This document shows positions 15,888 to 42,790 of a stretch of 64,000 nucleotides of DNA, piece by piece. A model generated the notes under the pieces. It ran no database searches. It was not told the origin of the DNA and was given only the letters and a program-made list of their open reading frames with translations. Source of the DNA: Eledone cirrhosa (Eukaryota); contig OZ024740.1 of the NCBI GenBank assembly GCA_964016885.1, forward strand, positions 331,762,001 through 331,826,000. The letters are read 5' to 3'. The translations under genes were made by a program, and so were the position numbers. Positions within the stretch are counted from its first letter, which is position 1; every line of letters begins with the position of its first letter.

Positions 15888-16050
15888 ATATATTTGAAGA
15901 AAAGGAAAAGAATGACTTCAATTGTAGTGTTAACAACATTTTTGGTTTAATATTATAATATTATAATATTATAACATTAAATCCAAAAAAGTGAAGTCAT
16001 TATTTTCCTTTTTCAAATATATCTAACTGTACCAAAGATCTCACATACTT

Positions 16051-16055
<5 letters not shown>
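15888..16055. mobile_element. fold-back (hairpin plus tail) micro-insertion in (TA)n, probably PLE-derived
   Basis: ATATTTGAA..AAAGGAAAA.AATGACTTCA...TTTTTGG.TTAAT pairs with ATTAAATCCAAAAAAGTGAAGTCATTATTTTCCTTTTTCAAATAT. Unpaired tail at about 16023-16055. Confidence 0.6.
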
Positions 16056-16089
<34 letters not shown>

Positions 16090-16091
<2 letters not shown>

Positions 16092-16380
16092 AATATAAAT
16101 TAGCGAGAATCGTATTTCAGCTTAGGAATTAACGAAATACAACTTCCGAGATGTGTGGCAAGCGCTCAATGATTCAGATGAACCAGAGGAGCTACAACAT
16201 ACGTTAAAGGCCAAACACACTGAGAGGATGGTTAAACAATCATCCGCACAGCCATAGAAATGACCAAGTAATTCGGGTCAAACAAATAAAAGTATATGTG
16301 ATTGAAATTTTACCCGGACCCCTGGATGGTTGGTAAAATCGAGCATTTTGGATTTCTGCGACTCCTAAATTAAGTACTGT

Positions 16381-16382
<2 letters not shown>
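16090..16382 (+). mobile_element. insert between (TA)n tracts, pLTR-like, with a degenerate hammerhead-like motif
   Basis: CTGAGA-GGATGGTT(AAAC)AATCATCC-GCAC at 16220-16249, followed by AATAAA. The catalytic core is not intact. Confidence 0.35.
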
Positions 16383-16444
<62 letters not shown>

Positions 16445-18068
16445 GAGAGAGAGAGAGAGAGAGTGTGTGTGTGTGTGTGTATGTGAGAGAGATAGAGACA
16501 GAAGATAGATAGATTCTTACAGAAACGACCGTTAAGTCATAAATGGATGTTATACTTGACATGCCATATTTCTTTTATTATTCTCTGCCATTGCATCTTC
16601 CTAAATAATCACATAAAATTGTGTTCCTGGATTTACAATACTAATGGAATATATTATGTTATTCCCTCTGTTATACACTACCTCCATTTCATCTCGTGAA
16701 CTAGGTGATCATATCGAATGCTGAATGAGATTTATGCCCAGATTATCGCTTAATAAATAAAGAAAAGGAATAAAGATATATGTGACCTGAAATCTTTAAA
16801 TCCCTCCCCGACATATACACATAGCCTGGTATTTCCACGTGTTCCTGACCTCAATGTGATATATAACTCTCATTATTACTCCTCTTCCAAATGAATGTAC
16901 ACTGTATTGGCTAAAGTTTTTATTACATGAAACAGATATTACATATATGAAAAAAGGAAAAGGATTCGGTCGTCAGATCGAACCAATGAATTTATGTTCC
17001 CATTGGCCTTTCCGTTGATGGTAATATGTACAGTTCACACGCCCTGATAGAATGAGTTGGGATTTAAGGAAAGAACCCATAGAATTGGTTCATTTAACGC
17101 ATAGCTCTTTACCAATTCAGACAATTCAATGGTACACGATTTATATTCCATAAAAACGAGCAAAGGCGTTGTTCGCCACAGTATGATTTGAAATCAGAGC
17201 ACAATAAACGGGAATAAATACCAAGGCATCTGATTTAGGTATTTGGCAGTTCGCCGCTGAATTAAATACAGAAACCATTGTAATCAATCAAATTCTTTCC
17301 TAACAACCACGAATGTTCAATACACTGACAAGAGTGGCGTCAGTTGAAAATGCTTCCCGTTAAGTGATCAGCGATGACCTGAAATTATTAGTATTAAAGC
17401 AGACAAGCCTATATATTGGAAATATTTCTGTTTCCAGTTTGACAGATTTACGTGTTTAATAGTATCATATATCATCTTAGAAAACTTTGCTTTGAAATCA
17501 TATTTTCAATGCACTCAGATTCACATACATCATGCATAGAAGCATACACTAACACACCTATGTACGTACTAATGCATTTTAATGGGGTATTTCTGATATT
17601 AATCTTACAGCAAATATTTGTAGGCAGTGAGCAGCCGTATAGTCCCACTAATTGCATTGATAATATATTTACGATGCTTGTGTTTTTTTATTAGTGAATA
17701 AACAAGCTAATTATACATTGGGTCATTTCCATAATTGTTTAACTCTTCTCACCTATTGAATGGAAAACTCCAAGGAAACAATATCTTTATCATGTAGGAA
17801 ACGAAAGATTACGCCAACGGGGTATTATTTGTAGAGGAATATGTATTCACCGACCAGTTTGTTGAATGAAACGTGAGAGTGACGAGCTTGTTTCAAGTGA
17901 ATGGGCCTATTCTGAGTATACGCATGCAGATTTGTGGAGGGAACCTGGGAGGGGGCACTTACCCTAGTGGATAGGGTGTTTGTGATCTATTTTTGTGGGC
18001 TTTCCCCTTTAAAATATGTGTTATGTTTGATATTTTGAATGTTTATTTTTTAGTCTTTGATACACAAA

Positions 18069-18215
18069 ATGTTCTGAGTTCAAATCTCGCCGAAGTAGGC
18101 TTTGCCTTTCATCCTTACGGGTTCGATAATATCAAGTACCATTAACTCCCTAAGGTGGAGGTAATTGACTTTCCTATCCTCAAATATTGTTGGCCTTGTG
18201 CCTAAATTATTATTA
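18069..18215 (+). mobile_element. tRNA-derived SINE (family A-related), 5'-truncated
   Basis: CTGAGTTCAAATCTCGCCGAAG..CTTTGCCTTTCATCCTTACGGG..TGGCCTTGTGCCTAAA. Confidence 0.8.
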
Positions 18216-18888
18216 GTGGTTGTATATTTAGTTGGCTATTACTCGAATTTCAGCTGTCAGTGTTGATGTTAGTTTAAGCGAGACAATTTATAGAGAACAG
18301 CTTTATTTAGATGAGGTGCCAGTGAGAGAAGATGTGTTTCAAAAGTAAATGAATCGTGTGTTTTAAATAAGGGGAGTGTAGTCATTGTTTAGATTGCAGT
18401 AAATATGCAAATTGAACTTTGGATCGTAATGAGCAGTGTTGAAATTAACATGCAAATAAAATAAAATTCTGGTGTTTGAGGAATGGAAAGCTGTGTTCTT
18501 AAAATGCTTGGCAAGCTGCATGATATGTGTGGGAGAAGAATAAAAATGGGTTGGAAATATGTTTCAGGCTGGTTGTCATGTTTTTCTCAATGTTTTTTTT
18601 TTATATTCGGGTGTGGGCGAGTTTTTTGGATTTTTTATGTCTCTCTTAGAAAAGTACTGGTATCCAAAATGTTAAGACATATTCTTTCCTTTTAAGCGCT
18701 ATGCTAATTTAGTGTTATTGGAATATTATTTGATGTATTTCATTGCTACGTTTGTGTAACTAACACACAATTGTTAGGTTTTTGCATATATCATTTTTTT
18801 TTCTGTTACCGCTTTTGCATTATCTGTAACGCGCGCGTTTTCTTCTTCTTTTTAGAGTTATTCAGTATATATATATATATATATATAT

Positions 18889-19270
18889 CCAGGGAGTGTA
18901 ACGCAGAGTTACTGTAGGTTCACCCGGGTGAGCATTCGATGTTTAGGTTCAAGTCGATATCGAGGTGTAGAGTTAGACAGAGTGTAGTATAATAAAACAA
19001 GGACGCGCGTTTCGCTATTGATCAGCTGAAGGTTCCATCTGTATCGATCTAGCCCGACTCTCTCATCAATGGCTCGTCGGACCTCTGTGGCAGTAATGAC
19101 ATTATTCTGTCATTGCTATCACAGAGATCCGATGAGCCATTGATTACAGAGTTGGGCTAGATCGATGCATATCGGACCTTGAGCTGATCAATAGCGAAAC
19201 GGGCGTCAACAACCAATAAACGTAATTGTTTTAATATATATATATATACATTAAACGCAATTGTTTTATT
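18889..19270. mobile_element. fold-back element: ~100-bp-arm palindrome (19002-19207) with a left-hand tail, in (TA)n; PLE pLTR-like
   Basis: GACGCGCGTTTCGCTATTGATCAGCT...AATGACA(TTATTC)TGTCATT...AGCTGATCAATAGCGAAACGGGCGTC. The arm ends resemble a minimal hammerhead 3' half (GAAACGCGCGTC) followed by AATAAA. Confidence 0.75.
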
Positions 19271-19279
19271 ATATATATA

Positions 19280-19650
19280 TATTAAAATAACAGATTAAAG
19301 TTTAAGCAAAGAATCGCTGCTTTCAACCTTAACGGGATCTTCTGAAACTAAAAAAGTCAATCTGTGAACGCAGAAGTAAATATTTCGAAAAACATTGCAA
19401 CCGCAGGAAAACAGGAAGACGATACTTTGGTTCGTGGAGAAGTTCCCTGGCAATGAACGGGGAAAAAGCGAAGATAATACGTCATTATGTGGAGCGTAGA
19501 GAACAATTACACGCAAAGACAAAACCACGTTTATGGTATAAATGAAGTCGTAGACTAATATTCTATTTAGGAAACCGAATGATTCTCGGCTTCAGAGTTA
19601 ATAATAATGTAAATAAATTAGTAGAACGACAATGACAGAGGTTATTAAAA
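19280..19650 (+). repeat. unclassified dispersed repeat (family B)
   Basis: About 19358-19650 is the reverse complement of about 23305-23586. The first ~45 bp recur at 42789-42833. Confidence 0.8.
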
Positions 19651-19837
19651 TAATTGTTTCTACGTTTGGCACAAGGCCAGCAATTACTAAGTGCATTACT
19701 GGTACTTTATTTTATCGACCCTGTAAGGATGAAAGGCAAAGTTAACCTCGGCGGGATTTGAACTCAGAATGCAAGGGCCGTAACTCTATACGTCAAAACA
19801 TGGCGTCCGACCTTCTACCAATACTACCAATCTACCG
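19651..19837 (-). mobile_element. tRNA-derived SINE (family A)
   Basis: Reverse complement of the family A sequence, full length. Confidence 0.9.
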
Positions 19838-19904
19838 TAAAATAATAATAATCAAATATATACATACACGCATCCACATATGTACATACCCTGACTTATA
19901 TTCA

Positions 19905-20750
19905 TCATGCAGAAACAACATCTGAATATTTCTACAAAGAACATACCCGTACCAACGAGGAAGACATACCTAAAACTCCTGATACAGAAAACGAACTCGT
20001 TCATTAAAAGGTTGCGTTAGCGTGCCATTTATTTCGATAATCAGGAAAAAGTGGACATTAAAAAGAATAAATTTGTGTTTAAAACTTACCCTCCGAGTAA
20101 CCCAGCATTGTTACCCTTCAAAATCCATGTCTTGGAACTCATACGGAGTATCAAATTTCGGAATAGGAGCAATACCTCCCAGCAGGATCTAAAGAATAGA
20201 CTTCGTTCTATTAAGGATTCTAAGGCCCTGCACATCCACTCCGACACAAAACCGGCAATCTATATCAAGTGAAGCGCAGTATTTACCATCAACTGCTACA
20301 TAATGCTGTAAGTAAGGATTAGCGGAAAACTAATCGAAGTGTCATTAATGACATCAACATGCTGGGTTTAAAATTACCTCTGAACTCAACAGGACCGGAC
20401 TGAACCTCTGGACCCTATTCCTCCCCACTTCACCCTGAAGGGTCACAAAACCAATTTCGCCAATAACCCCTCTACTCGGCTTATTAACCCTACGAAATCC
20501 GATTTAGGTAGACTTAGTAAAAGGATTTTAGATAGAATTATACCTGAAATTAGAAGCTTGGCCCCTCTTGCACTGTGGAATAATTGTTTCGCCGTGATGG
20601 ATTGGTTCAATGGCATATGCAACAAGGAACATTGCCGTTTTATCCAATTCGACATCAATAAATACTACTCCTCCAGCATTTTACCACTTCTTCTTAGAGC
20701 TATCAGTTTCACTAAAACGCTCACGGTGGTTAAGGAAGAAGAGACAGTAC
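19905..20750 (+). pseudogene. decayed Penelope-like RT fragment, Naiad/Chlamys-type (N-terminus to RT motif A)
   Basis: Frameshifted translation: YSTKNIPVP..., NSFIKRLR, FKTYPP..., ELIRSIKFR, TLKGHKTNFANNPSTRLINPTKSDLGRLSKRILDRI, VMDWFNGI..K..CRFIQFDINKYYSSI. The K(D)HK..F...RLINP.KS..G..SK signature is typical of this PLE group. Confidence 0.8.
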
Positions 20751-22286
20751 TCGTGAGCATCGCTGGCTCGCTGGCTCAAAAGACATCTGTAAAGTCGATG
20801 CCTGCAGGGAAGTCCTGAGCAGTGAGGAAATTATTGGAGGTTGACGATCTGGAAAGGACTTGCTGGGGCATGTTTAATATAGATTCATGGAATGGTTAAA
20901 AATGAATACCATCAGTGAAGAAAGGTCAGAGGTGTGTCTCATATGTGCTAGAATGCAAATAACACGAGAACAGTTAGCTTTTCGTATCAGAGACCCTTGT
21001 AGTCTTGAGAGAAAATGAAGACAGGAAACTGTATTTTTCCGATTCTGTATTAATTCATTGAGTGAGCTTCTTCTGAATACGGTTTGTGCTCTCTCTGTGT
21101 GCAGTAGCAGTACCGTTCCTGATGCCAGAGTATTATTCCGTAACTAATCACAATTTTCTTCCTCAGAAAAGTAAGGGCCATCTTTACCTAATCCACTTTA
21201 ATATTACTTAATAATCTAAATGTACATTCTGCATTTGGTAGGATGTTACATATTTATTTTTATATGTGCCAAATGTTAAATCTACTGAATGTGTTGTGTA
21301 GCCCATCATTTCCAAATTCGTAAGCCTTTAGTATCTCTACTTTAATTTTAATCACTTTTGACACCTTATAATCTTTATTTGTAGATTTTATTGCAATAAA
21401 TTCATTCTCACAGTATCTCTCGCAACTAGAGATTTTTAAATTTTATATCGTTAACTTTTGATTATTTAAAACAATTCCCTTGTTCCAACAATAACAACTC
21501 TCAGATTACTTCCGTAAACAAAGTAGCTAAGACAAGGTTATTCTCAGATATAGACGTTTTTTCTTCATCTTTTCGTACAAATAATGATGTGTACGAATAT
21601 AGGAAGGTGCAATCCTATCAAATGTGTTCATCCCCACCTTTTCTTCAAAGCTAGTGTTTAGATATATATAAACCGACAGCTGAGCTCCGACCGTTTCGAC
21701 AGCTAGATCCGAACTAACTCAGCAGTATTTCAACGGCGGGAATCTGGTTGAATTTATCAAGGGGTTACAGTTCATATATGGGCATGCAGTCAAAGAAAGA
21801 AAAACAGAAATATCAAATCAAACAATCCTAAAAATGTGTTGTTTTTCTTGTCTGTCACGGGGTATGGTCAATGATTTGGGGATGCCATGTACATGGTTAA
21901 ATTCCTTCATAGGAAGAGCCTTAAACATCTCGAAACAAAAATGTAAGAATGCTACATACAGTTGAACATATATAATCTGTACAGGAAGGAATAGAAACCG
22001 TTGTGAAAAACGATTCTAAAACTACTGATAAGTTTCAAAACGTCAGTACGTTAAGATAGATATATATATAAAAGGCAAAGGATGGCAAATGTGGATGTAC
22101 GAGGCATAATAGTAATGGCTTGGACGTAGGCTCACAATGACGTGTGTTCGATTCTTGGACTAATTTGTTGTTTTGTTGTGTACTTGCGCAGCACATCTAA
22201 ACTATAATAAAGGAAGCCCTGCGGGACTGCGTACGGTTTTTTTTTTTATCCCATTTATAAAATAAGTTAGATTACTTTGAATAAAT

Positions 22287-22454
22287 AATTGTTTCTAGTT
22301 TTGGCATAAGGCTAGCAATTACTGGTACTTTATTTTATCGACCCCGTAAGGATGAAAGGCAAAGTTAACCTCGGCGGGATTTGAACTCAGAATGGCAAGG
22401 GCCATAACCCTATGCGTCAAAGTATGGCGTCCGACCCTCTATCGATACTGCCAA
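22287..22454 (-). mobile_element. tRNA-derived SINE (family A)
   Basis: Reverse complement of family A with a small internal deletion near its 3' end. Confidence 0.88.
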
Positions 22455-22699
22455 AATGAATGAATATTACATAATGTATCTACTAAATTTCGTAAACAAA
22501 AAATATCGTAAAAATAAATAATTTGAAATTGACTTATTTTCAAGTTGCACTTCCTGTATATCGTTGTCACCACCACCACTTCAACTACCATATATATAGA
22601 AAGAGAGGAGAGTGTGTGATGACAACACTTCCGGTGGTGACTTAAATAAACATACTAATTTTCTTTCACTAATTTTCTCCTAATGAGGTTTATATATAA

Positions 22700-23145
22700 C
22701 TAGCAGAGGTACCCGGCGTTGCTCGGATATTAAATAGCAATTGTGTATACCATTTATGTCAATAGTTCAGTGCTGCTTCGAAAACTATACTTTTACAAAA
22801 TCATCGGCTTTTTCCAAAGGGGGGTTACTGCCCCCAGGGGTCCCCTACTCAATATGTGCCAATTCTTAGAGTTCACATTCATCCGTAGGACAAACGTAGC
22901 CCATGTGTCAAGTTTTGTGAAAATCGGTTGCGAACTCCAGAAGTTATGACGTTTTGTTGCATTGCACTGCAGGGCTTCAGTCGACTCCAAGGAAGTGGTT
23001 AAAGTGGTTAAAGGGGTTATCTGCCGGGGGGCCCTATAATCAATATCTGGACAAATGACAGTGCCCATGACCATCCGGAGTACATAAGTAACCTATGTCT
23101 TAAGTTTGGTGAAAATACTGTAGAAATGCATAAGTTTTATATTAT
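22700..23145 (-). mobile_element. non-autonomous Helitron
   Basis: The minus strand ends CCGAGCAACGCCGGGTACCTCTGCTAG|T (subterminal GC hairpin plus CTAG), the same type of end as 32875-32900. The 5' end is TATAATATAAAAC-like and decayed. Confidence 0.75.
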
Positions 23146-23161
23146 ACATACGCGCGTGCGT

Positions 23162-23218
<57 letters not shown>

Positions 23219-23264
23219 TGTATGTATTTGTGTGTGCGTATGTATGTGTATGTCCGTCGGGGCA

Positions 23265-23765
23265 TACGTATGTACTGGCCTAAATCTTCACTATTTACTT
23301 TTACTATTTTAACAACCTCTGTCATTTTCGTTTCAATTTTATTTACATCATTCTTAAACTCCGGGGCTGGAAATCATTCTGTTATTTTGTCTAACGACTC
23401 CATTTATACCCAAAACTTGTTCTTGTCTTTGCATGAAATTGTTCTTTACGCTCCACATAACGACGTATTATCCTCGCTTATTTCCCGTTCATTGCCAGGG
23501 AACGTCTTTTCGAACCAAAATATCGTCTTCCTGTTTTCGTTCGGTTGCAACGTTTCTCGAAATAATTACTTCTGCGTTCACAGATTACTCTCAGTTCAAT
23601 TTGAATGGGAAATTCCTGTTTCATCGATTTTCTCCGTAACCATGGAACATTGTAGCTTGAAAGTCGACCCAACGCCTCCTCGGGTCATTCTGTATAACTG
23701 TGTAAATTTTTGCTGCATTCAACGTCCGACCACTTCCAATTTATATAGTAGATTTGTTTATATAT
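23265..23765 (-). repeat. unclassified dispersed repeat (family B), longer copy
   Basis: Inverted relative to 19358-19650. The two ORF-track peptides share VLYAPHNDVLSSL..RSLPGN...FCVHRL. Confidence 0.8.
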
Positions 23766-23864
23766 GAATGACAAAAAGAAAAGTACAAAACTATACATGA
23801 ATTGTTTCTACTAAACCTTCAATTTAAGACACAACCTACATATTTGATAGGACTCCAGCTCACA

Positions 23865-23990
23865 CCATCATCTTCTTCTTCTTCTTCTTCTTCTTTTGCT
23901 CCCCCTGGAACATTGGGCTGCGAGCCACCCCCACACAACGCCATGTTCTGAGTCTGCTTTTCAACTCCACCGTGATGCACGGTGCGTCAT
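23865..23990 (-). mobile_element. 3' end of an RTE-like LINE with an (AAG)n tail
   Basis: The minus strand reads ...AGAACATGGCGT...GCAGCCCAATGTTCCAGGGGGAGCAAAAGAAGAAGAAG, resembling RTE 3' termini. Confidence 0.5.
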
Positions 23991-25659
23991 GGTGTATCTA
24001 ACCATTTTTTAGGTCTTACTACGGCTGATTTCTTCCAGAGAGAAAGAAAGAGATGGAAAAATGCGGAGAAGATTCATCCCCGAAGGAATAATAAAAAATG
24101 TTTACACTGCACATTTCATTCTTTCAAAGCTAAAGCTGCCGATCCAAAATCAGTAATTCAACTCCCTGAAAACTTTCAAATATATGCTGTTCTAGCATGA
24201 ATATTATGCTAAGGATAAGCTGTGCACAAAGTAAGATTTACTTACATATCCCCGCTCATATAAACACATAAATACATGCATACATACATTACGGTTGATT
24301 TTTTTTATATATATATATAGTGACGAAACATAAGTCAATTGCATGAACTCTTAATCCTTTATTTACTGCTTTATTTGTATGAAATTATAAATAAGACAAA
24401 AGTATTAGAACAGGGGGAAATAACTCACCGAACGCGATAGTTTTGGGGCCCCAGTGACCACATTTTTCAAGTTAGAGATTTGAAACTTCGTCTATTTGTT
24501 TCCTTGGCACTTTTTACATAGGTGTTTAAATGTTCATGTCAGTCCGACCACCTCTATTACCATTTAACCGTGCACATTTGAATTTCAACCACCGCCCATT
24601 TCACAAATATATATTAGATATCGTTTTTTTTTTAATGTTTCATGGATTACGTTACTGATTACAGAAGACAGTGTAACAACGTCTTCGTTCAATTTCTGTT
24701 TATATTGTCAATTACGATTTTATTTGATGTATCATATCTACATGTATATATATTTGCGTATAATATTAATATACACACTACACATCATTGCCTCTTTTCA
24801 AATGTGTAAAGGAACGTTTCCAAACAAAAATGAACGAAATATGTTTTCCATAACTTGTCTATATGCCTGAAATACGTGGGCAATTTTAGAATCATGATCC
24901 AATTACATCAAAAGAAAAGAATACAAATAATAGATTAGAAATGCTCGAAGCAGATTGGATTCTATGACGAATTTACCCCTGCGTATTTCAGACACATAGA
25001 CCAGTTAACGAAATACACATCGAACATTCGTTTTTATTTGAACCCTTTCCGTTTCCTGTTTGTAAAGAGTGTAATAACCCTGAAATATTATGTTGAAATA
25101 TTCTGGGTAAAAACATTACTTTATTCTGGTTATTTGTCATCTTTTGCCCTTTATATATATTTAGCGCTTTCGGAAATTCTCAGTTATTATTTGCATATCA
25201 CACAATGCTTCCTATATTACTACTAAACTCTTTTAAGCAATACTCCAGTAAAATATCGCGTTTATGAGTTGGTATACGATGAAAAGATTAACATTTCAGA
25301 AGTTCAAACGTTTAAAATTTTATCCAATTGGGATAGTCAGACTTCATAAAATTTAGGATCATCATTGCCTATTTAAATAGCTACAGAATCAATAAAAATG
25401 CATTGTTAGTGAACCTCCCTTCACTACATAGCTTAAATCTGAAATGGACTGGTTGAGAACAATTCCATTCCCCATAATAATATTACGTCATGGGTTCGTG
25501 TTAAACTAGACCATAGCGTGATATGAATCTAGAACGCAGTGCGAAATTCGGTAGTACGTAATTAAAGAAAATGCAATTTTAAATGAAAGTGAAAGAAAAA
25601 CCATCCTTTGAAAGAGAGACTGAGGTGATTGAATGGAAGAAAGACGTAGTAATGAAAGT

Positions 25660-27385
25660 GGAAGCGGATTAAAAACACTACGTATTAGTGCCGGATTAAA
25701 AATGATAAGTTTGAAAGCCGGATTTTTAAAAAAATGATCAGTGCCGGATTAAAAATATTAAGTTAAATTCCAGGTTGAAAAACACTAATGATCAGCACCG
25801 GATTAAAAATAATAAGGGTCAGTGCCGGATTAAAACCAATAAGGACAAGATACCAGATTAAAAGTAATAAGGATCAGTGACGGAGTAAAAACAATAAGGG
25901 TCAGTGTCGGATTAAAGTTAATAAGGATAAGAGCCGGATTAAAAATAATAAGGATCAGTGACGGATAAAAAATAATAAGGAATAGTGACCGATTAAAAAT
26001 GATAAGGGTCAGTGCCAGATTAAAAACAATAAAAGTCAGTATCGGATTAAAAACACAAATGATCAGTGCCGGATTAAAAATAATAAGGCTCAGCGCCGGA
26101 TTAAACATAACACGGATCAGTGACGGATTAAAAACACTATGGCTTAGTGCCGGATTAAAAGACTAATGATTTTTACAAGGATAAATGCCGAATCAAAAAT
26201 AATAAGATTCAGTGACGAATTATATATAATAAGGGTCAGTACCGGATTAAAAACACTACGGATTAGTGCTGGATTAAAAATAACAAGTTTGAGTGCCGGA
26301 TTAAACACACTAATGATCAGTGCCGGATTAAAAATAAGGATTAGTGACGGATTGAAAATGATAAGGATTAGTGACGGATTAAAAATTATAAGAGTCACTG
26401 TCGGATTAAAAAATATTATAGATTAGTGCCGGATTACAAGGTGTCGGTGCTAATTTAAAAAACAAAAGATCAGTGCCGGATTAAAAATAATAAGGGGGAT
26501 AACTTCCGGATTAAACATAAGACGGATCAGTGACGGATTAAAAACACAATGTATTACTGTCGGATAAAAATGTGTTAGTGCCGGATTAAAAGTCTAAAGA
26601 TCAGTGCCAGATAAAAATTAATAAGGATAAGTGCAGGATCAAAACTAGTAAGGATCAGTGACGGATTAAAAACACTATGGATTAGTGCTGGATTAAAAAT
26701 AACAAGTTGAACTGGCGGATTACAGACACTAATGATCAGTGCCGGATTAAAATTAATAAGGGTCAGAGTCGGATTAAAAAAACATAAGGATATGTGCTGG
26801 ATTGAAGATATTAAGTGTCAGTGCTGGGTTTGAACAGGTAAGGTTCAGTGCCGGATTAAAAATAAAATATTTGAGTGATGGATTAAAAGGTGTCAGTGCC
26901 GGATTAAAAACACTAATAATCACTGAAAATAATATGCGTCAGTGCCGGATTAAAACACTTGGGAGTAGTGCCACATTAAAAATAAGGAACATCACTGCCG
27001 GATTAAAAATAATAACGATTAGTACCGGATTAGAAATAATTAGGATCAGTGCCGGATTAAAAATAATAAATTTGAGTGCCGGAGTAAAACACTGTGGATT
27101 AAAAATGTGTTGGATTAAATGTGCTGGATTAAAAATAAGGGTCAGTGCTGGATTTAAACAAATAAGGATACTAGTGCCGGATTAAAAAACCATCGAATAG
27201 TGCCCCATAAAAAAAAAGATCAGTGCCGGATTAAAAACAATAAGTGTCAATTGCGGATTAGTACCGGACTGAAAAAAGGGTCAGTGCCTGATTAAAAATA
27301 ATAATGCTCAGTGCCGGATTAAAAACACTACAGATCAATGTCGGAATAAAGGTACCAAAGATCGATGCCGGATTAAAGACACTTG
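25660..27385. repeat. 27-bp minisatellite/satellite array, about 60 diverged monomers, consensus approx. AATAATAAGGATCAGTGCCGGATTAAA
   Basis: (CAGTG)CCGGATTAAAA recurs at ~27-bp spacing. It produces the FNPALILII / ISAGLKII ORFs. Confidence 0.95.
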
Positions 27386-27729: not shown

Positions 27730-27765
<36 letters not shown>

Positions 27766-28169: not shown

Positions 28170-28246
<77 letters not shown>

Positions 28247-28257
28247 AATATATATAA

Positions 28258-28418
28258 TTGGTGTGGGATGCTTATAGCGTCCGTATGCGGTAGGCCGATT
28301 GAGCACTCGATGCTCTTACAGAGCAGAGTATAATATCACAAAAGAAACGGAGAATCAGTGGTGCGGTGAAATAAACTTTATTGTCGCACCACTGATTCTC
28401 CGTTTGTTTTGTGACATA
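28258..28418. mobile_element. fold-back (hairpin plus tail) micro-insertion in (TA)n, probably PLE-derived
   Basis: 30-bp arms at 28336-28365 and 28385-28414 with one mismatch. GC-richer unpaired tail at 28258-28333. Confidence 0.7.
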
Positions 28419-28488
28419 TATATGTGTGTGTGTGTGTGTGCGTGTGCGTGGGTGTGGGTGGGTGTGTATGTATATATATATATATATA

Positions 28489-31467: not shown

Positions 31468-31487
31468 ATATAAGTATAAAGTTTGTC

Positions 31488-32021: not shown

Positions 32022-32900
32022 TCTATATATATAAAGCTGTGGTTGTCTGTCTGTCTATCGATTTTTGGCACACATCTCCTCTTAGAATCTCTGACGGAAT
32101 TGCACCGAAATTGCTATACTTGTACATTGAGCCCTAGCAAAGACATCGGAAAATAAATATTTCAAATTGACCCACCCTATGTGACGAAATCGAATCTAAT
32201 GTATCGATTTTTGAGCGTAAGTGACGAGTTATTTCCCTTTGTTCTATATATATAAAGCTGTGGTTGTCTGTCTGTCTATCGATTTTTGGCACACATCTCC
32301 TCTTAGAATCTCTGACGGAATTGCACCGAAATTGCTATACTTGTACATTGAGCCCTAGCGAAGACATCGGAAAAAAATATTTCAAATTGACCCACCCTAT
32401 GTGACGAAATCGAATCTAATGTATCGATTTTTGAGCGTAAGTGACGAGTTATTTCCCTTTGTTCTGTTTACATTGAGCGTCTTACGTTCTGTTTACATTT
32501 TCTGCGTGCAAAAATTAAAAAAATTACGCTGGCTTTCTCAGCGTTTAAAATGACATTAACACAATACACGAACAGTTGTCGAGCCAGCAAAATTTTGACC
32601 TGCAAAATTCATCAGTTCGAACACTAAGCTTCCGTTTTGCTTCATTTCCATTTAAAAGCCTTTTAAAACAATATTTTTACTTGAAAACAAGTCTATTTAA
32701 AGACTACGTAAAACAAGCAAATATTTCGTAAAAAAAGCAAAAATTATATAAGTTTATTTAAAATATATGTATCTGTAAATTTTGTTAGGCGTGCAGACAG
32801 ACAGTCGTGCAGACAGACTTTAAGCCAAAAAAGAAACTTAACATTGTAGCTTTAACACAGCTACTGAGCGACCCCGAGCAACGCCGGGCTTTACTGCTAG
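32022..32900 (+). mobile_element. non-autonomous Helitron with a tandemly duplicated 5' end
   Basis: A|TCTATATATATAAAGCTG start; a 221-bp unit is repeated at 32243; the end is CCCGAGCAACGCCGGG-CTTTACTGCTAG|T. Confidence 0.85.
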
Positions 32901-33800
32901 TATATATATAAAACTGAGGTTGTCTGTCTGTCTGTCTACTAAGACGGTCGGCACACATCTCCTCCTAAACCGTACGTTCAAATTTCGGTGAACTTGCTAC
33001 ACTTATAGATGAAGGTCCGGTGGCGACATCGGTCAAACAAATTTTCAAATCGACCCACGCCAAGTGCAAAAATCGAATTTGTAATGTATTGATTTTTCAG
33101 TTCAAATGTATAAATAGAGATGAGAGACGAGGTATTTCCCTTTTATGGCGTCATTCTGTCTATCTATTTACGTTATGAATATACGACGCGTGCAAAAGTA
33201 TAAAAATACGCGAACAGTTTTCGGACCAGCAAAATTTTAACCTGCAAAATTCATGAGTTCGAAGTTTCAACATTAAGCTTCCATTTTGCTTCATTTCCAT
33301 TAAAATGTCTTTTAAAACAATATTTTTACTTGAAAACAAGCAAATATTTTGTAAAAAAAAGCATTGATCTATATATATAATCTCGAATAAAGCCTTATGA
33401 GATTTTCATTTAGAAGCAATGATTTTAAACGACAGGCAGATAACGCATTTTTTCTTTTTTGTCCATCCAATTTCTTTGTTTCAAAATAACTGATAGTTTG
33501 GTTACGCTGATGTTTTTCTCTGAGACAAGTGTTGCAGTGTTTACATTTTCGATCTTTGTTAATATATTACCAGTGCAGTTTTTATCCCCAGCATCCTCTT
33601 TTGTTTTAACATTCGGATTATGGCTATGTTTTCTTAACTTCATAAGGCATACTGTTGGTTGAGGGAATATTAATAAAAAGTGCCACATGAAAGTCTACAC
33701 TGTAGACTCTACAGTTTTTAAGCCAAGAAAGGAACTTAACATTGTAACATTGTAACACAGCTACTGAGCAGCCCCGAGCAACGCCTGGCTTTACTGCTAG
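32901..33800 (+). mobile_element. second, related non-autonomous Helitron, head-to-tail with the first, with a further internal 5' end at 33368
   Basis: Starts TATATATATAAAACTGAGGTTGTCTGTCTG, has internal homology to 32022-32900, and ends CCCCGAGCAACGCCTGGCTTTACTGCTAG|T. Confidence 0.8.
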
Positions 33801-35147
33801 TATGATATATTTCAAATTTTAATCCAAATAACATCAAAATCTGCACACACACATACAACTAAACGTACCTATCCCGATATCCTGTTAAAGGACAAAGAAA
33901 ATGTAAATTCTTATACATAAATATCCAATTATAATATATAATGGCTTCCAAAAGCATTACATTGTTCAAACTGGTCTGAAGCCCCAAGAACGGATTACTG
34001 TATACTATCAACAAATTAGGGACCAAGACACAAGAATGATTCTGATTAATCAAAATATAGAAGATTACCGAAGATGAATCTTCAAATTTCGATGTTTTTC
34101 TAATTTATCAATAACTTTATTCCACACCGAAGCAAAACTACAAGTCGAAACTCAATTCAATGCACATCTAACCAGCCGTCAAATCAGTGTTACTTTCCTT
34201 TTTCTTGGGATGTAGATTTCCTTCGACATAGGCGACAGTGGAACAACCAGTTACATCCCTTGTTTTAGAAAAACATAAGAGACATACACATACATGATGT
34301 GAAAAACATGTTTCAACGTTGCATATATCAGCATTTGAGGAGAAAATATATCCAACACGGATAAAACTGAAACGTTGAAATATACTAGCGTAACCAATTA
34401 GTGCAAAAACTAATTAGATAATCCTGTCTATATCTGAGAAATAATATTAATGTATTTTGCATGAACCATTTTTTTTTCGCTATGTATGATAAACATACGT
34501 TTCCATAAAAATAATTCAGTGCATCGTCAAAACTTTATTTTTTAGTGCTTATATACGTATATGTGCGTTTGTGCGTCAGTCTGTCTCTATATGTGTGTGT
34601 GTGTATGTGTGTGTGACGAGGAAGAGGAAATTGGTTTTCTTTAGATCGGTCAATTATCATTGGATTTATTCCTTATTTCTCCTATTCCTTGTGGTGTTTA
34701 GATATATAATGTAATTAATTACGACATCGAAATATAATTCAAACTTAAACCTGATTCAATAGAAACTACTTCAAAGCTTATGACATCAGAATATTTATAC
34801 TATCTGTTGACGTCTGCTCTTCATTGGCTGTTCTAGTACATCATTAATCTTCGATTGACGTGAAATAATCGAATTTTCATGGAGTTCTTTGTTCAAAAGG
34901 TCAAATTCTTTCTGCTTTGATACTGCTCCAGAGCTTGCTCACACATGAGTAATTATGTTATAATATGTTGGTATATGACATTTTTTAATTGGTGTCTCGT
35001 CCTTTCGTGTGGTTGAGAAAATATGTTGCAGTTTCCTATTATTTAATACACACACACACACACACACAGACACACCCCTCACACAAATACACACACACAC
35101 ACACATACACAAACACAAACACAAACACACACACACATACGCACACT

Positions 35148-35211
<64 letters not shown>

Positions 35212-35217
<6 letters not shown>

Positions 35218-35369
35218 TGGTTACACAACAGTTAGTTCACCATAGCGGATCCTCAGCTCGTAATGTCCATTACGAGGTGGTGAGCTAACTGTTATGTAAC
35301 CACTTCTACCTAACTCGTCCCATGGACTGAGTGCTCTACCACTACGGATATTACCTTCCAGTGTTCTAC

Positions 35370-35372
<3 letters not shown>
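35212..35372. mobile_element. miniature fold-back derivative of the PLE family at 42027-42715
   Basis: Arms 35212-35242 and 35278-35308, plus tail 35309-35359 (AACTCGTCCCATGGACTGAGTGCTCTACC...TATTACCTTC), match the 42027-42150 terminal sequence. Confidence 0.85.
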
Positions 35373-35414
<42 letters not shown>

Positions 35415-35839
35415 GTGTTACATTTTTCAAACTATTCGCCAATCATTTCGTGTCGATATTTGAGTTCATATAATAATGAAATATGCTGAATTATAGGTCA
35501 AACAAATAATATTTAAAGGTTGCACACTTTCAAATGTTTTTTTTTTTTCTTATGACGATGTTGTATCTGTTATGCTCACCACACGAAATAACGAAATGAA
35601 ATGAAAATAAGCATAAGGAATAAGTTCAATATATACAATGATATCGGGGTTAAATAGAGAGAATATTTGTGAATGAAATTTATTACCAGATACCACCCTT
35701 TCCGTTCCCTGAAAGACCTCTTGAAATAAATAAAAATTAAATAAGCAGAATAAATACGTGCTAACTACTCAATAATATCGGAATTAAAGAGAGGAACGCT
35801 GTTTATGAATGAAATTTCTAACCGGAAATGACTTATGTG

Positions 35840-37260
35840 ATATAAGCTTAAGTTGTTCCTTGAACCGAACTATTTCGAATATATATTTGGCCTTAGCCAT
35901 CCAACGAGACTAGTGGTAAGTTCCTGGGAATGAGAAGGAGAAATGTGGAGATGGCTAACCAACAAGATGAAAGCTGTACATTTAGTAGTTATTCATCTCC
36001 CGCCTCTTTCGTTTGTAAAATTCTTATGTGGGCACATCATCATCAAAGATAGTTTAATAATGAGACTTGTCAATAGAGTCCCAATGTTCCTGGAACTTTT
36101 TGAACATTGGGATACGGAGTCCAGATAATGGGGAAATGATCACGAAGACTTTCTTCAAAACCAATTCATGAATGTGATAGGGGCAAGTCAGCCACAAGAG
36201 GGATTAAATGCAGAGTTGCTTCAATGTTCGTATTGGCTCGTTGATGATTGCAGATGTTACTGGCGGTGGTGTCGAAGGACATACCAGTTACTCTATCCTC
36301 AATTTTGACTCATTGAATTTCATTCAAAACAACTTAAGCGATTTGTTATCTGGTGCCATCTCTTGCAATAGAAACATTTAAGAGCTCCCCCTTCCCTTTT
36401 CCTGTAATTAAAACTGCAATCCGATTTTCCTCTTTCCTGGTTAGAGAACACAATGGTAATAATTGTCTATAGCAGTAGGCGACTAGCCATGACCTTTCTA
36501 AAGGTAGGAAAGCAGATATTTCCATATCCTTAGTAATCTTCTCACAGTGACTGGTTCTTGTTGGTTAAACAGTTAAGGAGGAAATCGAGAATTCAGACAT
36601 ATCATGACCAAGAACCTTCACAAGTACTTGTTTGTCATACCGATAGTTTCTTCTGTTCCCACGTGTCAGCAAGAGTGGCATGGGCTTTTTTCGAGGTGAT
36701 TTTCTTCATCATCATAATCATCATTACTAACAGCTGAGCTGGATGACGAACTTTCAAGAGCTACCTTCTCGGACATATTTTGACTTCTTCATCCTGATTT
36801 CACATACTTAATTTCATATCATGAATCTTATTTTCTTTCTTCTGAATGACTCTCATATATTCTGCATCAACACAAGACATGAATAAAGTTATCCGATCCT
36901 TCAGTTGTGTCTCGGGGAAAGCTTTGTCTTCAGATGGGACACTCTTTCCTTCAAGAACGTCCTGTCTTGCAATGTCAAACATGTCCTCAAGATCAACTTT
37001 CCGAATCCCCCGCTTTGCAATTGCTTTGTCAGTCATCCATGATTTAAATTTTTTTAGTACTTGCTACTCCTTATACTATTTTTTAGTTGAGGCGTGGATG
37101 TTTTTATTAGGAATATTTGCTTGTCTCCAGATGTGCTGGATCTTCTGACTAATGTACTTCTATGGCAATTCAAATTATCTCCCTTGAGTTTAGACGTGAT
37201 GGTAGAGAAAATACACAAGGACTTGTTGTTTGGAGGGCTTTCTCTCAAGCAGTAAAATGG
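35840..37260 (-). pseudogene. decayed hAT-superfamily (hATm-like) transposase
   Basis: Minus-strand motifs in the expected order: PSKQQVL.YF, IWRQANIP, LEDMFDIA...EDKAF..TQ, NRIAVLITG...LLNV, GMSFDTTASN, LLWLTCPYHIHELVL (CxxH), PMFKKFQEHWDSID, PGTYH*SRWMAK. Many stops and frameshifts. Confidence 0.85.
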
Positions 37261-38800
37261 TCTTTCTGTTGTCCATTTTCTTATTCTCTATAAGAGATGA
37301 AAATCAAAATCAAATAATCAATATTATTTTAAGGAACCTCTGGGTTCTAACCATATCTGGAACCCATTCAGTTTATGAAAAGCAAAAGAGAAGAACATCA
37401 TTTACTAACTTTATTACAATGGATGTAACTTGACAAAAACCAGCATGTTTACAACTTGCTAACACAACCTGCACTGAAGCAACAACGCAATGAATCTAAG
37501 AACCAACAAAGAAATGAATCTTGCATTAGAACCTTATTGTTAACTCATTGTCTTCTTGAATTATCAAAACAAATATCGAAGATTCGCCTAATCAACGTAA
37601 TACCAAATACTTCATTGTACGAAAAATAAAACAAATCACCAATGTAAAATTATTTCTTCATAATTAGTTTTAGTTTATGGTTCATTTCTTTTTCATTTTG
37701 AATCATACAAATTATAGAAAAGTCTCAGAAATGTAAATAGATGGAAATTAACAAAAAGATGCATTCTGGTTATATTCAAGTGTTGAGCTAAAATGTTTTA
37801 ACATTTAAAAAGCACCAAACCGTTCATCCCTTACATATACTTTCCAGATTCACAGAAATTTAGAAAAGGAAATTCCTTGATTCTATTACAGGAAAGCAAC
37901 CAACTATATTATAAGCCCATGAAGGATGACATTGGTGGGATTCAGAGCTAAAACGTACCGGGCCGTACATATTGTAAAGCATTTAGTTTGACATCTTAAT
38001 GCTCCTATTTATCCGATTATCTTCGTGAAAGTCCTCAAGGACTCGCTGATTTGAGTGTTTCTATGTGGTTGCTTGATTTGTATTATATTGTTGTCAAAAG
38101 TTGCTGGGATCTTGGGGAAGGATTAATTGCCAAACTGTTAATTTGTCCATGGTGTTAAATTTAAAGTGTGCTAGCTGTAGTTTATCTGGGAGTCTGTGGT
38201 GAAGATAGAATTAGTATTTCAGTAATCCTGAATCATTTTCATGGCAAAATTATAAAATCAACGTTGACTATTTCTGAGATAAAACAATTTAAGAATGCCA
38301 GCTTTTCAGACAGGAATACCAAGATAGATATTTTTAGAAACAATTACTTCCCGGTCAACTCTAAGATCATTCAAACATTCAAGCTAATCCCACGTCCAAC
38401 TCACATTTCTAGCCATTTTTTGAAGTGACTATCACCACAACAGATTGCTTTCACACCTATCCCATGTCGCCTTCTTCTTCTCCCCCTCACCCCTTCTCCC
38501 TCTCCTCCTCGTCTTCCTCTCCTTCGCCCTCTCCCCCAACTACTACCAGTCAAATCCAGTAGTCAGAACCAAAACTTTTTAACTACTACCACCTCTGTTA
38601 GCCAACTAACAGAGAACGAAGGACAACCTCGGACAGACATATGAACTCTCCTCTCTAAATATGTATATAAAAACTAATAATTTTTCTTCCCCACTTCATT
38701 ATTATTCGTAAAAATATGCAACTTAACTGCACTTTGCACATCCGCCGTTGAAAAAGCATATAAATACTATTTGTTTATATGTGTGTGTGTATATATATAT

Positions 38801-38935
38801 ATATGAAAAGATTCAGAACCCCGACGGCTCAGCTATCGGGGTGCTGAATCTTTTCATATTACCCACTCTACTACCCCAAGTATCGAGTACTCTGGTGCGT
38901 TATGGTCCACCTGGTATCTTACCACACCTGATTTG

Positions 38936-38937
<2 letters not shown>
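38801..38937. mobile_element. fold-back (hairpin plus tail) micro-insertion in (TA)n
   Basis: 29-bp arms at 38801-38829 and 38831-38859 with almost no loop. The tail 38860-38937 also occurs alone at 15810-15878. Confidence 0.75.
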
Positions 38938-38981
<44 letters not shown>

Positions 38982-39105
38982 GCGGTGAATTAGTTTTGCG
39001 AGGTTTTTTATATGAAATCGTGTGTCGAAACAAATATTGTTATACTTGGGGAGGGTCATATTTGTGCAATATAAGATGGGTAATACGATGGGTAATATCT
39101 ATCCT

Positions 39106-41451
39106 ACGAGGTTACCCTTTAATAAAAGAGTTTGCATACCAAAACAAATAGATGACGAGACAGAGGCACAGTTCACCATAGCTAGAAATAAGATTAGACA
39201 AATAGTAGACAGGTATACTAAGAGACAGAGCAGACCAGAGGCCCAACAACTTGGGAGGAAACCTGTAGAAGGCTTGGTTAGCCTCAAGCAGCGCACAAGG
39301 GATGGTGAGGTAGTATGTCTACCCACGGATAAGTCTGGTAGGATGTCAATAGATAGCATGCCGAACTACATCGAGGCTATGCAACCCCACATCACCAACA
39401 CGAGCGAAATTGCCCAACAAACACACGATGGGAGAGAGAAAATCCTCAACGCTCACATGATGATGTGGACTGACATCCTAAAGCCAAGCAGACGCACTGC
39501 CAACAACTTCCAGGCGTCTAACAATGGCATACCACCCTTGTATGGGCTCCGCAAAGACCACAAGACAGTCGACGACCCGACAACAGGACCACCAACAAGA
39601 CCCTTATGCGGAGCTAATATAGCTAGCAACTATAGGATCTCCTACTTCCTCTCAATGGTTATACGCCCCATAATCAAGATGTCCCCAGATGTATGTGACA
39701 GTACAGAGGACCTCCTCAGCAGAATCAATGAGTGCAACAAAAACATGAGCCTATCCAACTGCATAATAGGCAGCATGGATGTGGTGTCACTGTGCCCATC
39801 CATTAACATTGATTTTGCTGTGAAAAGATGTGTGGAGATGATCATTGAGAGTGAGGTGGAGTTCTGCGACGTCGACACAGACGAACTGGGCCTCCTACTT
39901 AGACTTACCTACGACACTGACTACCTAGACAGCCATGACCTTAGATGTTTCTGCCCTAGTAGACCTATAAGAGGTAGACCCCCCCCCACCACCACCATAA
40001 CCTCAAGGGCAATAAAAAGACTCCCATGGGAAGGTGGATTGGGTGGACCAAAGCTATACGGACCCCCCAAAACAATGATCATGTAAGAAAAATGGTCGCA
40101 CATGCAATAGGGGCTAGTATCAAAACTACCCTAAAGGGCCACATATTTAAGTTCAACGAGAAGATCTACACCCAAAACGAGGGAGCAGCCATCGGCGTCA
40201 GCATAGCTGGTGATGTTGCCAACCTTTTCATGGTGTGGTGGGAAAGGAGATTTAAAGATCTCCTTAATGAGAGCTCCATAGACCTCATCATGTACTCTCG
40301 TTATGTAGACGAAATCAATATAGTTATAAGAACACCCCCACTTGAGAGCACTAACAAGTTTGATTTAGAACGTAGCACGATGGAAAGCATCCAGCAGATA
40401 GCTAATTCCATACACCAGAGTATAACTGTAACTATCGACTTCCCTTCCAAACACCCTAACAATAGACTACCTGTATTAGACACAGAACTCTGGATTAACA
40501 CTATAGACGAGAGAGCCCAAATTCTCCACTCACACTATGCTAAACCCATGGCCTCCAAATACCTGATACTCAAAAACTCAGCAATGTCCAGTAGTGCTAA
40601 GTTTAATATTCTGATCGCAGATTTGGTACGAGTGATGAAGAATGTGTCCCGCATGTGCGACCCAACAGAAATGGAAAGACACATCCAACACTTCATCAAC
40701 CGCATGCAGTTCTCTGGCTACAACCAAAGAGACAGAGTCAGAGTATACGAAGGAGCCATGGAAAAGTATAAGACCCTCATAGAACTGGACATGAAAGGAA
40801 TTTGCCCATTATACAGGAGCAAATCATGGAATAGCTTAGATAGGCTAGACATAAGATAGGGAAAGCCACATCATGGTACGACAACCAGAGATACCAGAGT
40901 GTCATGTTTGTGGACGCCACCCCTGGAGGGAAATTAGCTAACCAGTGTAGAAAGGCCCTGAGAAAGACCCACTTAAAAATAAAGGTGGTAGAAAAGCCAG
41001 GAACCACCATAAAATGAATGATCAGTAAAACCTACCCTTTTAAGAAAACCCACTGTACTAATAGGAAATGTATCATATGTAAGGTGAACCCCCGGATAAA
41101 CTGTAAAACTAGAAACGTAGTCTATAGCATACAGAGGGTACTTGCAGAAACATGACAACAACATACATAGGTGAGACAGCTCGTAGCATAGGTGAAAGGA
41201 TAGACCAACACTGGGGGGAACTAAAAGGACGAAAAAACGGGTCAGTACTATACGAACATGCTAGACAACAACATGACGGTAACATAGACAACATAGAAAT
41301 TAGAATAATATCTAAACATAGAAATGACCCAGCAGATAGGCAAATCAGAGAGGCCAGTGAAATAGAAAATAGAAGACCAAAGCTAAACAGAAAGAATGAA
41401 TGGATTAACAACAACACCCAAACAAACAACACTGACCTAAGAGAAGTATAA
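39106..41451 (+). pseudogene. PLE polyprotein (reverse transcriptase, Zn-finger linker, GIY-YIG endonuclease), disrupted
   Basis: PTDKSGR, LYGLRKDHK, RPLCGA, GSMDVVSLCPSI, YTQNEGAAIG, SRYVDEI, LPVLDTELW, HYAKPMAS; linker CTNRKCIIC...C; NVVYSI...YIGETARSIGERIDQH...EA..I...PKLNRKNEW. Frameshifts near 40030 and 41130; in-frame stops at 40857 and about 41015. Confidence 0.93.
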
Positions 41452-41675
41452 ATAAGTAAATTAAATAAAATAAATAAATAAATAAATACATACACAAGCA
41501 CAATAACAACAAGCACATAAACACACACTAGTCAACAAAACACTATACACACACGCAAACGCATGCGCAAAGAAGACAAAATAAAATAAACAAACAAGCA
41601 AATAAATAAATAAATATATAGACAGACTGAATAAAAATGGCGTAGACATACAGTACAACAGGAGGAAGATATAAC

Positions 41676-41717
41676 ACCACTGACGATTTTGCAGATGTGC
41701 AACGAAAGCTTTATGAT
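41676..41717 (+). ncRNA. candidate minimal type I hammerhead ribozyme in the PLE pLTR
   Basis: ACCA-CTGACGA-TT-TTGCA(GATG)TGCAA-C-GAAA-GCT-TTA-TGAT. The stem III region AAAGCTTT is palindromic; stem I has one mismatch. Confidence 0.6.
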
Positions 41718-41918
41718 AAACTATATATATGTGTTTGTGTCTATATTCTATCTGTATTATTTTTGACCGTCGGTCAGTCAATGGCAACATTGAGGACCGA
41801 GTAAGTTAGATTACCGATATAAAAGACACAGAAGCGAGAAGCGAAAACCAACCAAACAGTGAGTGTGTTATGTTATTAATTCTGGCAATATTGCACAAAT
41901 ATGACCCTCCCCAAGTAT

Positions 41919-41986
<68 letters not shown>

Positions 41987-42107
41987 AGAGAGATAGAAAG
42001 ATAGAAAGAGAAAGAGAGAGAGAGAGGAAGGTAATAACCGTAGAGGTAGAGCACTCAGTCCAGGGGACGAGTTTGGTAGAAATAGAGGCACAACAGTTAG
42101 TTCACCA

Positions 42108-42150
42108 TACCGAGAACGATTGTTTCACCTTAGCGGATCTTCAGCTCGTA
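42108..42150 (-). ncRNA. candidate minimal hammerhead ribozyme (inverted pLTR copy)
   Basis: Minus strand: TACGAG-CTGAAGA-TCCGCTAAGGT-GAAA-C-AATC-GTT-CTCGGTA. Stem I CGAG/CTCG; cleavage triplet GUU. Confidence 0.7.
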
Positions 42151-42181
42151 CTGGTCATGCTTATACGGAACAGGTCGACTG

Positions 42182-42475
42182 GTGGTTCAGGAAACGTTCC
42201 TGAACCATCAGTCGACCTTTAGTTACCCGGACAAACAATCATCCACGAAACTCGCGAGCCACGTATGGTCCCTCAATGACTCAGGTATAGACTACTCCAT
42301 CAATGGAAAGCCATCACTAAGTCCAATCCTTACGCATGGACTGTGTATTGAAGAAAGAATAAATATTCTAAGGAGATTACGCAATATCGATTGCATGAAA
42401 TCAAGAAATGAAATCGTCTCACGTTGACTACATGTATGGAAACACCTCTTACATAACTACAAAGCTCCGGGTTGA
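42182..42475 (+). pseudogene. C-terminal half of a Naiad-type PLE GIY-YIG endonuclease
   Basis: F.NHQSTF......STKLASHVWSL...GIDYSI(W)..., LCIEERINI, MKSRNEIVSR*LHVWKHLL, matching the NH..SF...T.LS.H.W.LK / C.LC..EK..I / LN.R.E....CRH..K..L pattern. Confidence 0.8.
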
Positions 42476-42645
42476 ATAACAACAACATTCTAATTTTCCG
42501 ATCAACTGGAACACCTTTTCCGGACTTTCGCAGTTATCTCCCTTACACGTTTCGCCCGTGGCTTTGTATCGCTTGGGTGAAGTGACCGTTTCTGCGCATG
42601 CGCGTCCATGCGGTTGTTCTTGCTGTTCCGTAAAACCATGACCAG

Positions 42646-42688
42646 TACCAGCTGAAGATCCGCTAAGGGGAAACGATTATTCTCGGTA
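42646..42688 (+). ncRNA. candidate minimal hammerhead ribozyme (3' pLTR copy, partly mutated)
   Basis: TACCAG-CTGAAGA-TCCGCTAAGGG-GAAA-C-GATT-ATT-CTCGGTA. Confidence 0.6.
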
Positions 42689-42713
42689 TGGTGAACTAAC
42701 TGTTGTGGTTCTA

Positions 42714-42790
<77 letters not shown>

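Follow-up and report, generated by a model that had tools for sequence, protein, structure and literature searches.

Inverted pairs of Penelope-like element 3' ends in TA repeats of Eledone cirrhosa nearly always join a short and a long terminus

Introduction

Penelope-like elements (PLEs) form the sister group of the telomerase reverse transcriptases (RTs). In L1 twin priming, each of the two target strands serves as a primer on the RNA, and the cDNAs are linked in inverted orientation through short microhomology; the second priming takes place at variable internal positions, which yields an inversion without duplication. Here, we analyze inserts in a 64-kb stretch of the Eledone cirrhosa genome (GenBank assembly GCA_964016885.1, contig OZ024740.1, positions 331,762,001 to 331,826,000, forward strand; hereafter the window, with positions counted from its first letter). 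Unlike in L1, both primings would occur at fixed 3' sites of a PLE, so that the same sequence is copied twice and a hairpin results. We consider it probable that each insert consists of two 5'-truncated copies of the 3' end of one PLE, placed head to head in a TA repeat by twin priming that uses both RT start sites of the element.

The closest described systems are the PLEs of the Hydra clade (Craig et al, 2021, PMC8557442), which share with five of the families described below (A, B, C, D, and G) a C-terminal GIY-YIG endonuclease (EN), a CxCx5C linker, the lack of a CCHH motif, hammerhead-like motifs (predicted in these families), and the (TA)n context. That paper reports (TA)n targeting by Hydra elements, an octopus family included, and lists Hydra-1_Obim in its supplement. 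The tails of the five families measure 66-133 nt, compared with 30-40 bp in PMC8557442, and the parts of that account cited here contain no end-pairing count, miniature fold-back class, or tail hairpin. EN-containing PLEs often carry an inverted, 5'-truncated pseudo-long terminal repeat (pLTR) with a tail that is often at one end only (PMC8557442, fig. 2 legend; PMC3846280), which is the architecture found here, and the tail of Adineta Pen2a continues into the beginning of the ORF (open reading frame; PMC3846280), as it does in our family F. What differs is that one-sidedness is near-strict and holds regardless of which arm is longer, and that most products are shorter than 350 bp. The origin of the inverted repeats and one-sided tails is named in PMC8557442 as a question still to be answered. 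In vitro, the PLE Poseidon_Ac (Frangieh et al, 2024, PMC11167929) cuts AT-rich targets and extends both strands, starts reverse transcription at two internal sites that bound the tail, and is predicted to form a dimer; two such start sites and both-strand cleavage would apply here. The families analyzed in this work belong to other clades, and inverted products are left unexplained in the cited parts of PMC11167929. PLE families are also given in an octopus repeat annotation (PMC13282606), in its cited parts without such detail.

The literature thus already contains inverted pLTRs, tails on one side, TA targeting, and a pair of start sites. The inserts described here belong to known PLE clades and show a mechanistic regularity that is useful and can be tested. 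We found no report of a counted pairing rule or of a conserved tail hairpin in searches of the open-licence literature.

Results and Discussion

Head-to-head pairs of PLE 3' ends

This analysis confirmed that all seven inserts proposed in a sequence-only reading of the window, together with two additional ones, are head-to-head pairs of PLE 3' ends, which we sorted into seven families (A to G, our own lettering; Table 1). Inverted repeats are present at all seven places (self-BLAST and reading of the 64-kb window), and the hairpin with a one-sided tail that had been described as their common architecture is real in each case; the set itself was incomplete, with the inserts at 15810-15879 and 63425-63656 overlooked. 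Tails measure 35-133 nt, and the range of 30-110 bp given earlier does not hold. One arm had also been said to run into (TA)n, which needs correction for the insert at 42027, whose long end meets a (GA)n-like run first and (TA)n thereafter. The insert at 35212 was rightly recognized as a miniature of that at 42027, both being family A; the tail lies on the right arm in the former and on the left arm in the latter. Folded as RNA, five small hairpins have z-scores of -7.7 to -12.9, with none of 200 shuffles equally stable for any of them.

Every family could be traced to copies that carry GIY-YIG and/or RT coding sequence. Both domains were reached in A, D, E, F, and G; in B and C the copies extend to EN but not as far as RT. 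The family B terminus is tied to GIY-YIG in loci L327 and L328, that of family C in L373/L349 and L374/L356, and that of family D in L258, with RT and EN present in L378. The family E terminus is connected to RT and EN in L242 via a long TA/TG-rich 3' untranslated region (UTR), and the coding link of family G is found in L212, L239, and L249. As had been proposed, the two largest inserts are PLEs with RT/GIY-YIG coding remnants (families F and A); the family F copy retains remnants of RT and EN and lacks ~1.2 kb of the 5' ORF. The small hairpins likewise have homology to PLE termini, each mapping to the 3' terminus of GIY-YIG/RT-bearing copies, and genome copy searches showed that they are multi-copy rather than single-copy. 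First-look candidates, of which 40 were scored per family, number at least 4427 for A, 3724 for B, 1659 for C, 242 for D, 926 for E, and 1401 for F, all counts being lower bounds.

The motifs fit five putative Hydra-clade families (A, B, C, D, and G), one Neptune family (E), and one short-linker type (F), labels that reflect comparison by eye with PMC8557442, including the RT4 motif in its supplement fig. S1. Translations of A, B, C, D, and G show the CxCx5C linker and an endonuclease without CCHH (section 11 of PMC8557442), and those of family D show DKT and RW[K/R]. Family E has a DKG motif, CX2-5CxxC with a long linker, and CCHH (supplement fig. S2), while family F, a candidate for Nematis or Neptune, has a short linker like the Nematis rows and reads DKS at the DKG position. 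A Nematis label for A-D and G was dropped after the motif comparison with section 11. Pfam returned RVT_1 only, in one of four proteins and below the cut-off (E 0.011). The 3' UTRs of families C and D exceed 1 kb.

Family E has a 3' UTR (L242, L312, and L316) of more than 1 kb of degenerate TA/TG repeat that could pass as a host microsatellite and that is broken in L242 by a transposase-like fragment. The 5' part of the family F ORF (L181:2918-4118) includes a long stretch rich in asparagine, reminiscent of the N-rich inserts in Adineta Penelope elements.

Short and long ends are paired

Each family has two sharp 3' ends ahead of (TA)n, a short and a long one, with a bimodal distribution per family. 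The distance between them is ~66 nt in A, ~99 in B, ~77 in C, ~78 in D, ~35 in E, ~57 in F, and ~133 in G. Among the loci examined, tandem copies were seen for families F and D, and none for A, B, C, E, and G. In the family F tandems (L181, L184, L209, and L174) the tail continues into ORF codons, and in the sole family D tandem (L378) it continues into a 93-nt leader preceding the ATG; the tail is therefore where the following tandem unit begins on a read-through RNA. Of the earlier suggestion that priming occurs at two points of the pLTR, the two end points per family stand, whereas their common location inside the pLTR does not, the tail being the start of the next unit. The proposed targeting of TA microsatellites by several PLE families agrees with the ends themselves, 159 of 178 of which have (TA)3 no more than 14 nt away, compared with 7.5% of background positions.

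Typing of the ends revealed that the two arms of an insert nearly always differ. Three sources chosen without regard to the tail were used: 80 stretches of 10 kb at fixed positions on 16 contigs, queries containing only the element body, and flanks encountered incidentally. A short end is combined with a long end in 104 of their 109 typed two-armed inserts; three are long+long, two are short+short, and two further inserts were untyped. About half would be expected under independent choice (p ~2e-25). The rule also holds in the fixed-position sample by itself (30/31 typed inserts), with tail-containing queries (100/104), and in the window, where end typing gave one short and one long end in seven of eight inserts; in the exception, at 18889, the left end is long and the right end is damaged and truncated. 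For pairs recovered after coverage filtering, a simpler typing rule was applied. Among inserts of at least 400 bp, 17 have a short-ended and 13 a long-ended longer arm (p 0.58), a split which shows that the inverted arm does not dictate where the tail lies; the possibility, raised earlier, that the tail is always on that arm is rejected. A near-strict rule that spans three PLE types and is indifferent to arm length narrows the possible mechanisms.

In family A, a (TC)n run of variable length separates the terminus from (TA)n at 15 of 35 long ends (examples are window 41984-42026, L003, L014, L015, and L025) and at 3 of 36 short ends, compared with 1 of 242 long ends of the other families. Slippage at RT initiation, akin to the addition of repeats by telomerase, could account for it, as could a templated seed that expanded later.

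Arms and junctions of individual inserts

Across 152 pairs, arms within an insert are 92.4% alike, compared with 86.8% between inserts, and in family D, whose ends are diagnostic of subfamilies, the arms of the same insert mostly agree. Almost all junction strings are distinct (79/80 in D, 26/26 in C, 23/23 in B, and 25/30 in E), as judged by an ungapped measure that inflates distinctness. Among 52 inserts of at least 350 bp, 17 junctions have an overlap of 1-15 nt, one is blunt, 18 have a gap of 1-30 nt, and 16 were not assigned to a class. The inserts are independent events and not copies of a replicating hairpin. Core length in family D varies between 3 and 198 bp, and two-armed inserts form a graded series from 97 bp to 4 kb.

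The subfamily variants shared between arms, together with the nearly complete distinctness of the junctions, argue that the inserts are not miniature inverted-repeat transposable elements (MITEs). MITEs with terminal inverted repeats of the Tc1/mariner type were rejected on the asymmetric ends, the range of lengths, and the distinct junctions, and the PLE termini bear out the earlier view that the hairpins are of another kind. In non-LTR retrozymes, units that each carry a type I hammerhead are repeated in tandem, head to tail (bioRxiv 10.64898/2026.07.22.740005). These were also rejected, as the window inserts are head-to-head and no head-to-tail hammerhead tandem array is present in the window.

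RNA motifs near the two ends

Hammerhead-like cores were predicted 20-62 nt upstream of the short site in families A, B, C, D, and G, and ~210 nt upstream in F. With a strict descriptor, 5 of 14 tested copies matched, in families B, C, D, and G (at most 1% in shuffles), and relaxed family-specific patterns match A and F as well; neither strict nor relaxed patterns found such a core in family E. An Rfam scan of the window gave 96 matches at E up to 5, none of which reached the gathering score and none of which was a hammerhead. The minimal hammerheads described in PLEs have type I cores and a palindromic helix III (Cervera and de la Pena, 2014, PMC4209133), as in the cores predicted here, whereas B, C, D, and G have a long helix II. 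The predicted cores of D and G are of the U3-A8 variant described in Schistosoma PLEs (PMC4209133). The same paper reports opposite-strand hammerhead pairs 100-700 bp apart in Schistosoma, in its cited parts without a reading as two-armed insertions.

The tails of the Hydra families have a GAGTRCTC motif in common, which proved to be one strand of a bulged hairpin. In full tails, the hairpin is present in 17/30 copies of A, 9/29 of B, 41/45 of C, 58/77 of D, and 3/4 of G (shuffles at most 2.5%). It begins 3-8 nt past the short site, its inner stem differs by family, and a second copy lies 5 nt past the long site in the family D tandem L378. A sequence-only alignment of the five tails did not bring the hairpin into register. 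The hairpin is likely the positioning signal in the five Hydra families and offers a candidate that can be mutated.

Twin priming and alternative origins

In the twin-priming reading, the element protein would cut both strands of the TA tract, and each cut 3' end would start cDNA synthesis on a shared read-through RNA, with the short site serving one strand and the long site the other; the allocation of one start site per strand would probably involve a protein dimer bound to one read-through RNA. Both cDNAs would usually stall within ~100 nt, and their tips would be joined by host end-joining with little or no microhomology.

Several points weigh against this reading. Five of 109 inserts depart from the short+long rule, among them the long+long insert L026, which joins arms of different subfamilies. 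The count itself followed the removal of two edge-cut duplicates (L162 and L163) and the hand retyping of L184 (a tandem whose final end is short) and L335 (a miscalled short end). An insert's own arm is its best or tied-best match in only 63 of the 152 pairs, and arm concordance could stem from one dominant source locus rather than from one RNA. PMC11167929 reports that, in vitro, the top and bottom strands do not differ in where reverse transcription starts, and target-site duplications cannot be read inside (TA)n. The bulged hairpin is missing in families E (0/49) and F (0/28), which both obey the pairing rule, and hence is not the general signal. Finally, 20 of 72 TA-flanked fold-backs detected de novo (see below) are symmetric and tail-less, so that a one-sided tail is not universal in this class.

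The main rival explanation, which we regard as unlikely, is that staggered endonuclease cuts resolving a tandem or inverted DNA intermediate, and not RT starts, set both ends. Endonuclease resolution of a DNA intermediate is discussed in PMC8557442, and a staggered pair of cuts would likewise yield one long and one short end. This account is at odds with the mapping of both genomic ends to RT initiation sites in vitro (PMC11167929), with the covariation of the tail hairpin across families as a single-strand structure, and with junctions that are site-specific and have short overlaps or gaps.

Less probable still is self-priming by a folded-back cDNA or antisense RNA, with the second arm copied from the first. 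Palindromes at inverted junctions are taken as self-priming in PMC3846280, and many small D and E junctions do sit in internal palindromes; shared variants between arms, including the same private changes in both arms of the long+long insert L084, also agree with such copying. In 17 of 30 long inserts, however, including both large inserts of the window, the tail is present on the shorter arm only. The shorter arm cannot be a copy of a longer arm that lacks the tail, and fold-back is largely refuted for these inserts. A third view, in which the small hairpins would amplify themselves as non-autonomous units, either MITEs that target TA or hairpin elements of fixed form, is very improbable: the top family E hairpin matches are near-constant in length and one junction string recurs in 5 of 30, but all small hairpins map to PLE termini, lengths grade up to 4 kb, the family E junction lies within a TAATAT repeat and E arms follow different subfamilies, and family D combines variable cores with junction strings that are distinct in all but one case (by the ungapped, inflating measure).

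Beyond twin priming as such, a broader proposal can be put forward tentatively, at less than even odds in our view: a PLE dimer on one read-through RNA, guided in Hydra families by twin bulged hairpins, may give each cut strand one start site and copy the RNA twice, making two-armed synthesis the normal route of integration, with stalled products leaving ~10^5 pre-miRNA-sized hairpins as a supply of double-stranded RNA for editing or silencing.

Abundance of fold-backs flanked by TA repeats

In a fixed-position sample of 800 kb from the 3.0-Gb genome, we found 32 two-armed inserts of families A-G, corresponding to 40 per Mb and 1.3% of bases; 30 of the 32 are shorter than 350 bp. A de novo scan of the same sample detected 52 tail-type and 20 symmetric fold-backs in 693 TA-bounded segments, compared with 1 and 0 in shuffles. 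Of the tail-type fold-backs, 16 overlap families A-G, and some of the others may be misparsed. If the sample is representative, a density of 40-65 per Mb corresponds to about 1-2 x 10^5 tail-type fold-backs genome-wide. For annotation, small fold-backs in such numbers would be the ends of retrotransposons, which tools that rely on structure could classify as MITEs or miRNA precursors. The same scan found five tail-type fold-backs in the 64-kb window, near the sample average. The earlier figure of about seven in 27 kb is accurate as a count, and those 27 kb are a local peak.

The 20 symmetric fold-backs (among them L217:8510, L221:7926, L223:2129, L241:6880, L250:1258, L250:3875, L273:3022, and L280:7226), several of which have ends in common and differ in length, could represent true MITEs or PLE families that have a single start site. 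A very abundant repeat that abuts TA (window 19275-19650, 23305-23586, and 42789-42833; 84 local matches) forms short-tailed fold-backs in L217, L243, and L266 and is probably another PLE end. A further TA-abutting family with a fixed end was seen in L282-L300.

Further features of the window

Table 1. Positions of the two-armed inserts, their inverted repeats, and related PLE ends in the window (clade names follow motif comparison by eye)
Feature	Position	Strand	Details
Family D (Hydra), minimal two-armed insert	15810..15879	+	~9 bp inverted short end and last 64 nt of tail; below folding size
Family E (Neptune)	15893..16057	+	Inverted short-ended arm, direct arm, 35-nt tail at ~16022-16057
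Family B (Hydra)	18889..19233	-	Left, long-ended arm with tail; right, damaged short arm; hammerhead-like motif in both arms
Small duplicated scrap beside family B insert	19245-19270
Solo family D end	21673..21712	-	3'-clipped, running into (TA)n
Family C (Hydra)	28258..28418	-	77-nt tail at 28258-28335; arms 28336-28418
Family A (Hydra), miniature	35213..35372	+	Left arm short-ended, right arm long-ended, tail at ~35305-35372; internal deletions spanning the hammerhead-like motif in both arms
Family D (Hydra)	38803..38937	+	Arms 38803-38859; 78-nt tail 38860-38937; arm junction lies in helix III of the predicted hammerhead-like motif
Family F, inverted long-ended arm	38979..39072	-	55-nt tail (38979-39033) and 39-bp arm
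Family F, direct copy	39077..41926	+	5'-truncated by ~1.2 kb; short end at 41926; remnants of RT and C-terminal GIY-YIG interrupted by frameshifts/stops; hammerhead-like core in 3' UTR near 41680-41713
Family A	42027..42715	+	Inverted long-ended arm 42027-42172; direct arm 42186-42715 with short end, comprising end of GIY-YIG (to 42385), 3' UTR, and hammerhead-like motif at ~42652-42683; junction overlap 5 nt
Family G (Hydra)	63425..63656	-	Left tail 133 nt; arms 63551-63656
Inverted repeats, smaller inserts	15885-16025, 19002-19207, 28329-28422, 35212-35308, 38801-38859		Self-BLAST and reading
Inverted repeats, larger inserts	39034-39072 vs 41889-41927; 42077-42173 vs 42623-42719		Self-BLAST and reading

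Two places were kept out of the insert count. The segment at 46660-47054 is a decayed inverted duplication of a fragment of the endonuclease region of a long interspersed nuclear element (LINE), with (TG)/(TA) in its loop, and 24792-25069 was left unassigned. Over 18600-19500, three contig runs of one sample gave cover with no piece across the insert, a result that has no bearing on editing, and depth was highest at the abundant TA-abutting repeat.

A decayed Hydra-type RT fragment, read by eye and without a Pfam match, lies at 19900-20818 of the window. A minisatellite with a 27-bp unit and ~53 or more copies occupies 25665-27383. Outside the window, L212:6600-9300 contains a non-LTR element with an RT and a C-terminal restriction-like motif, nested in a two-armed family G insert.

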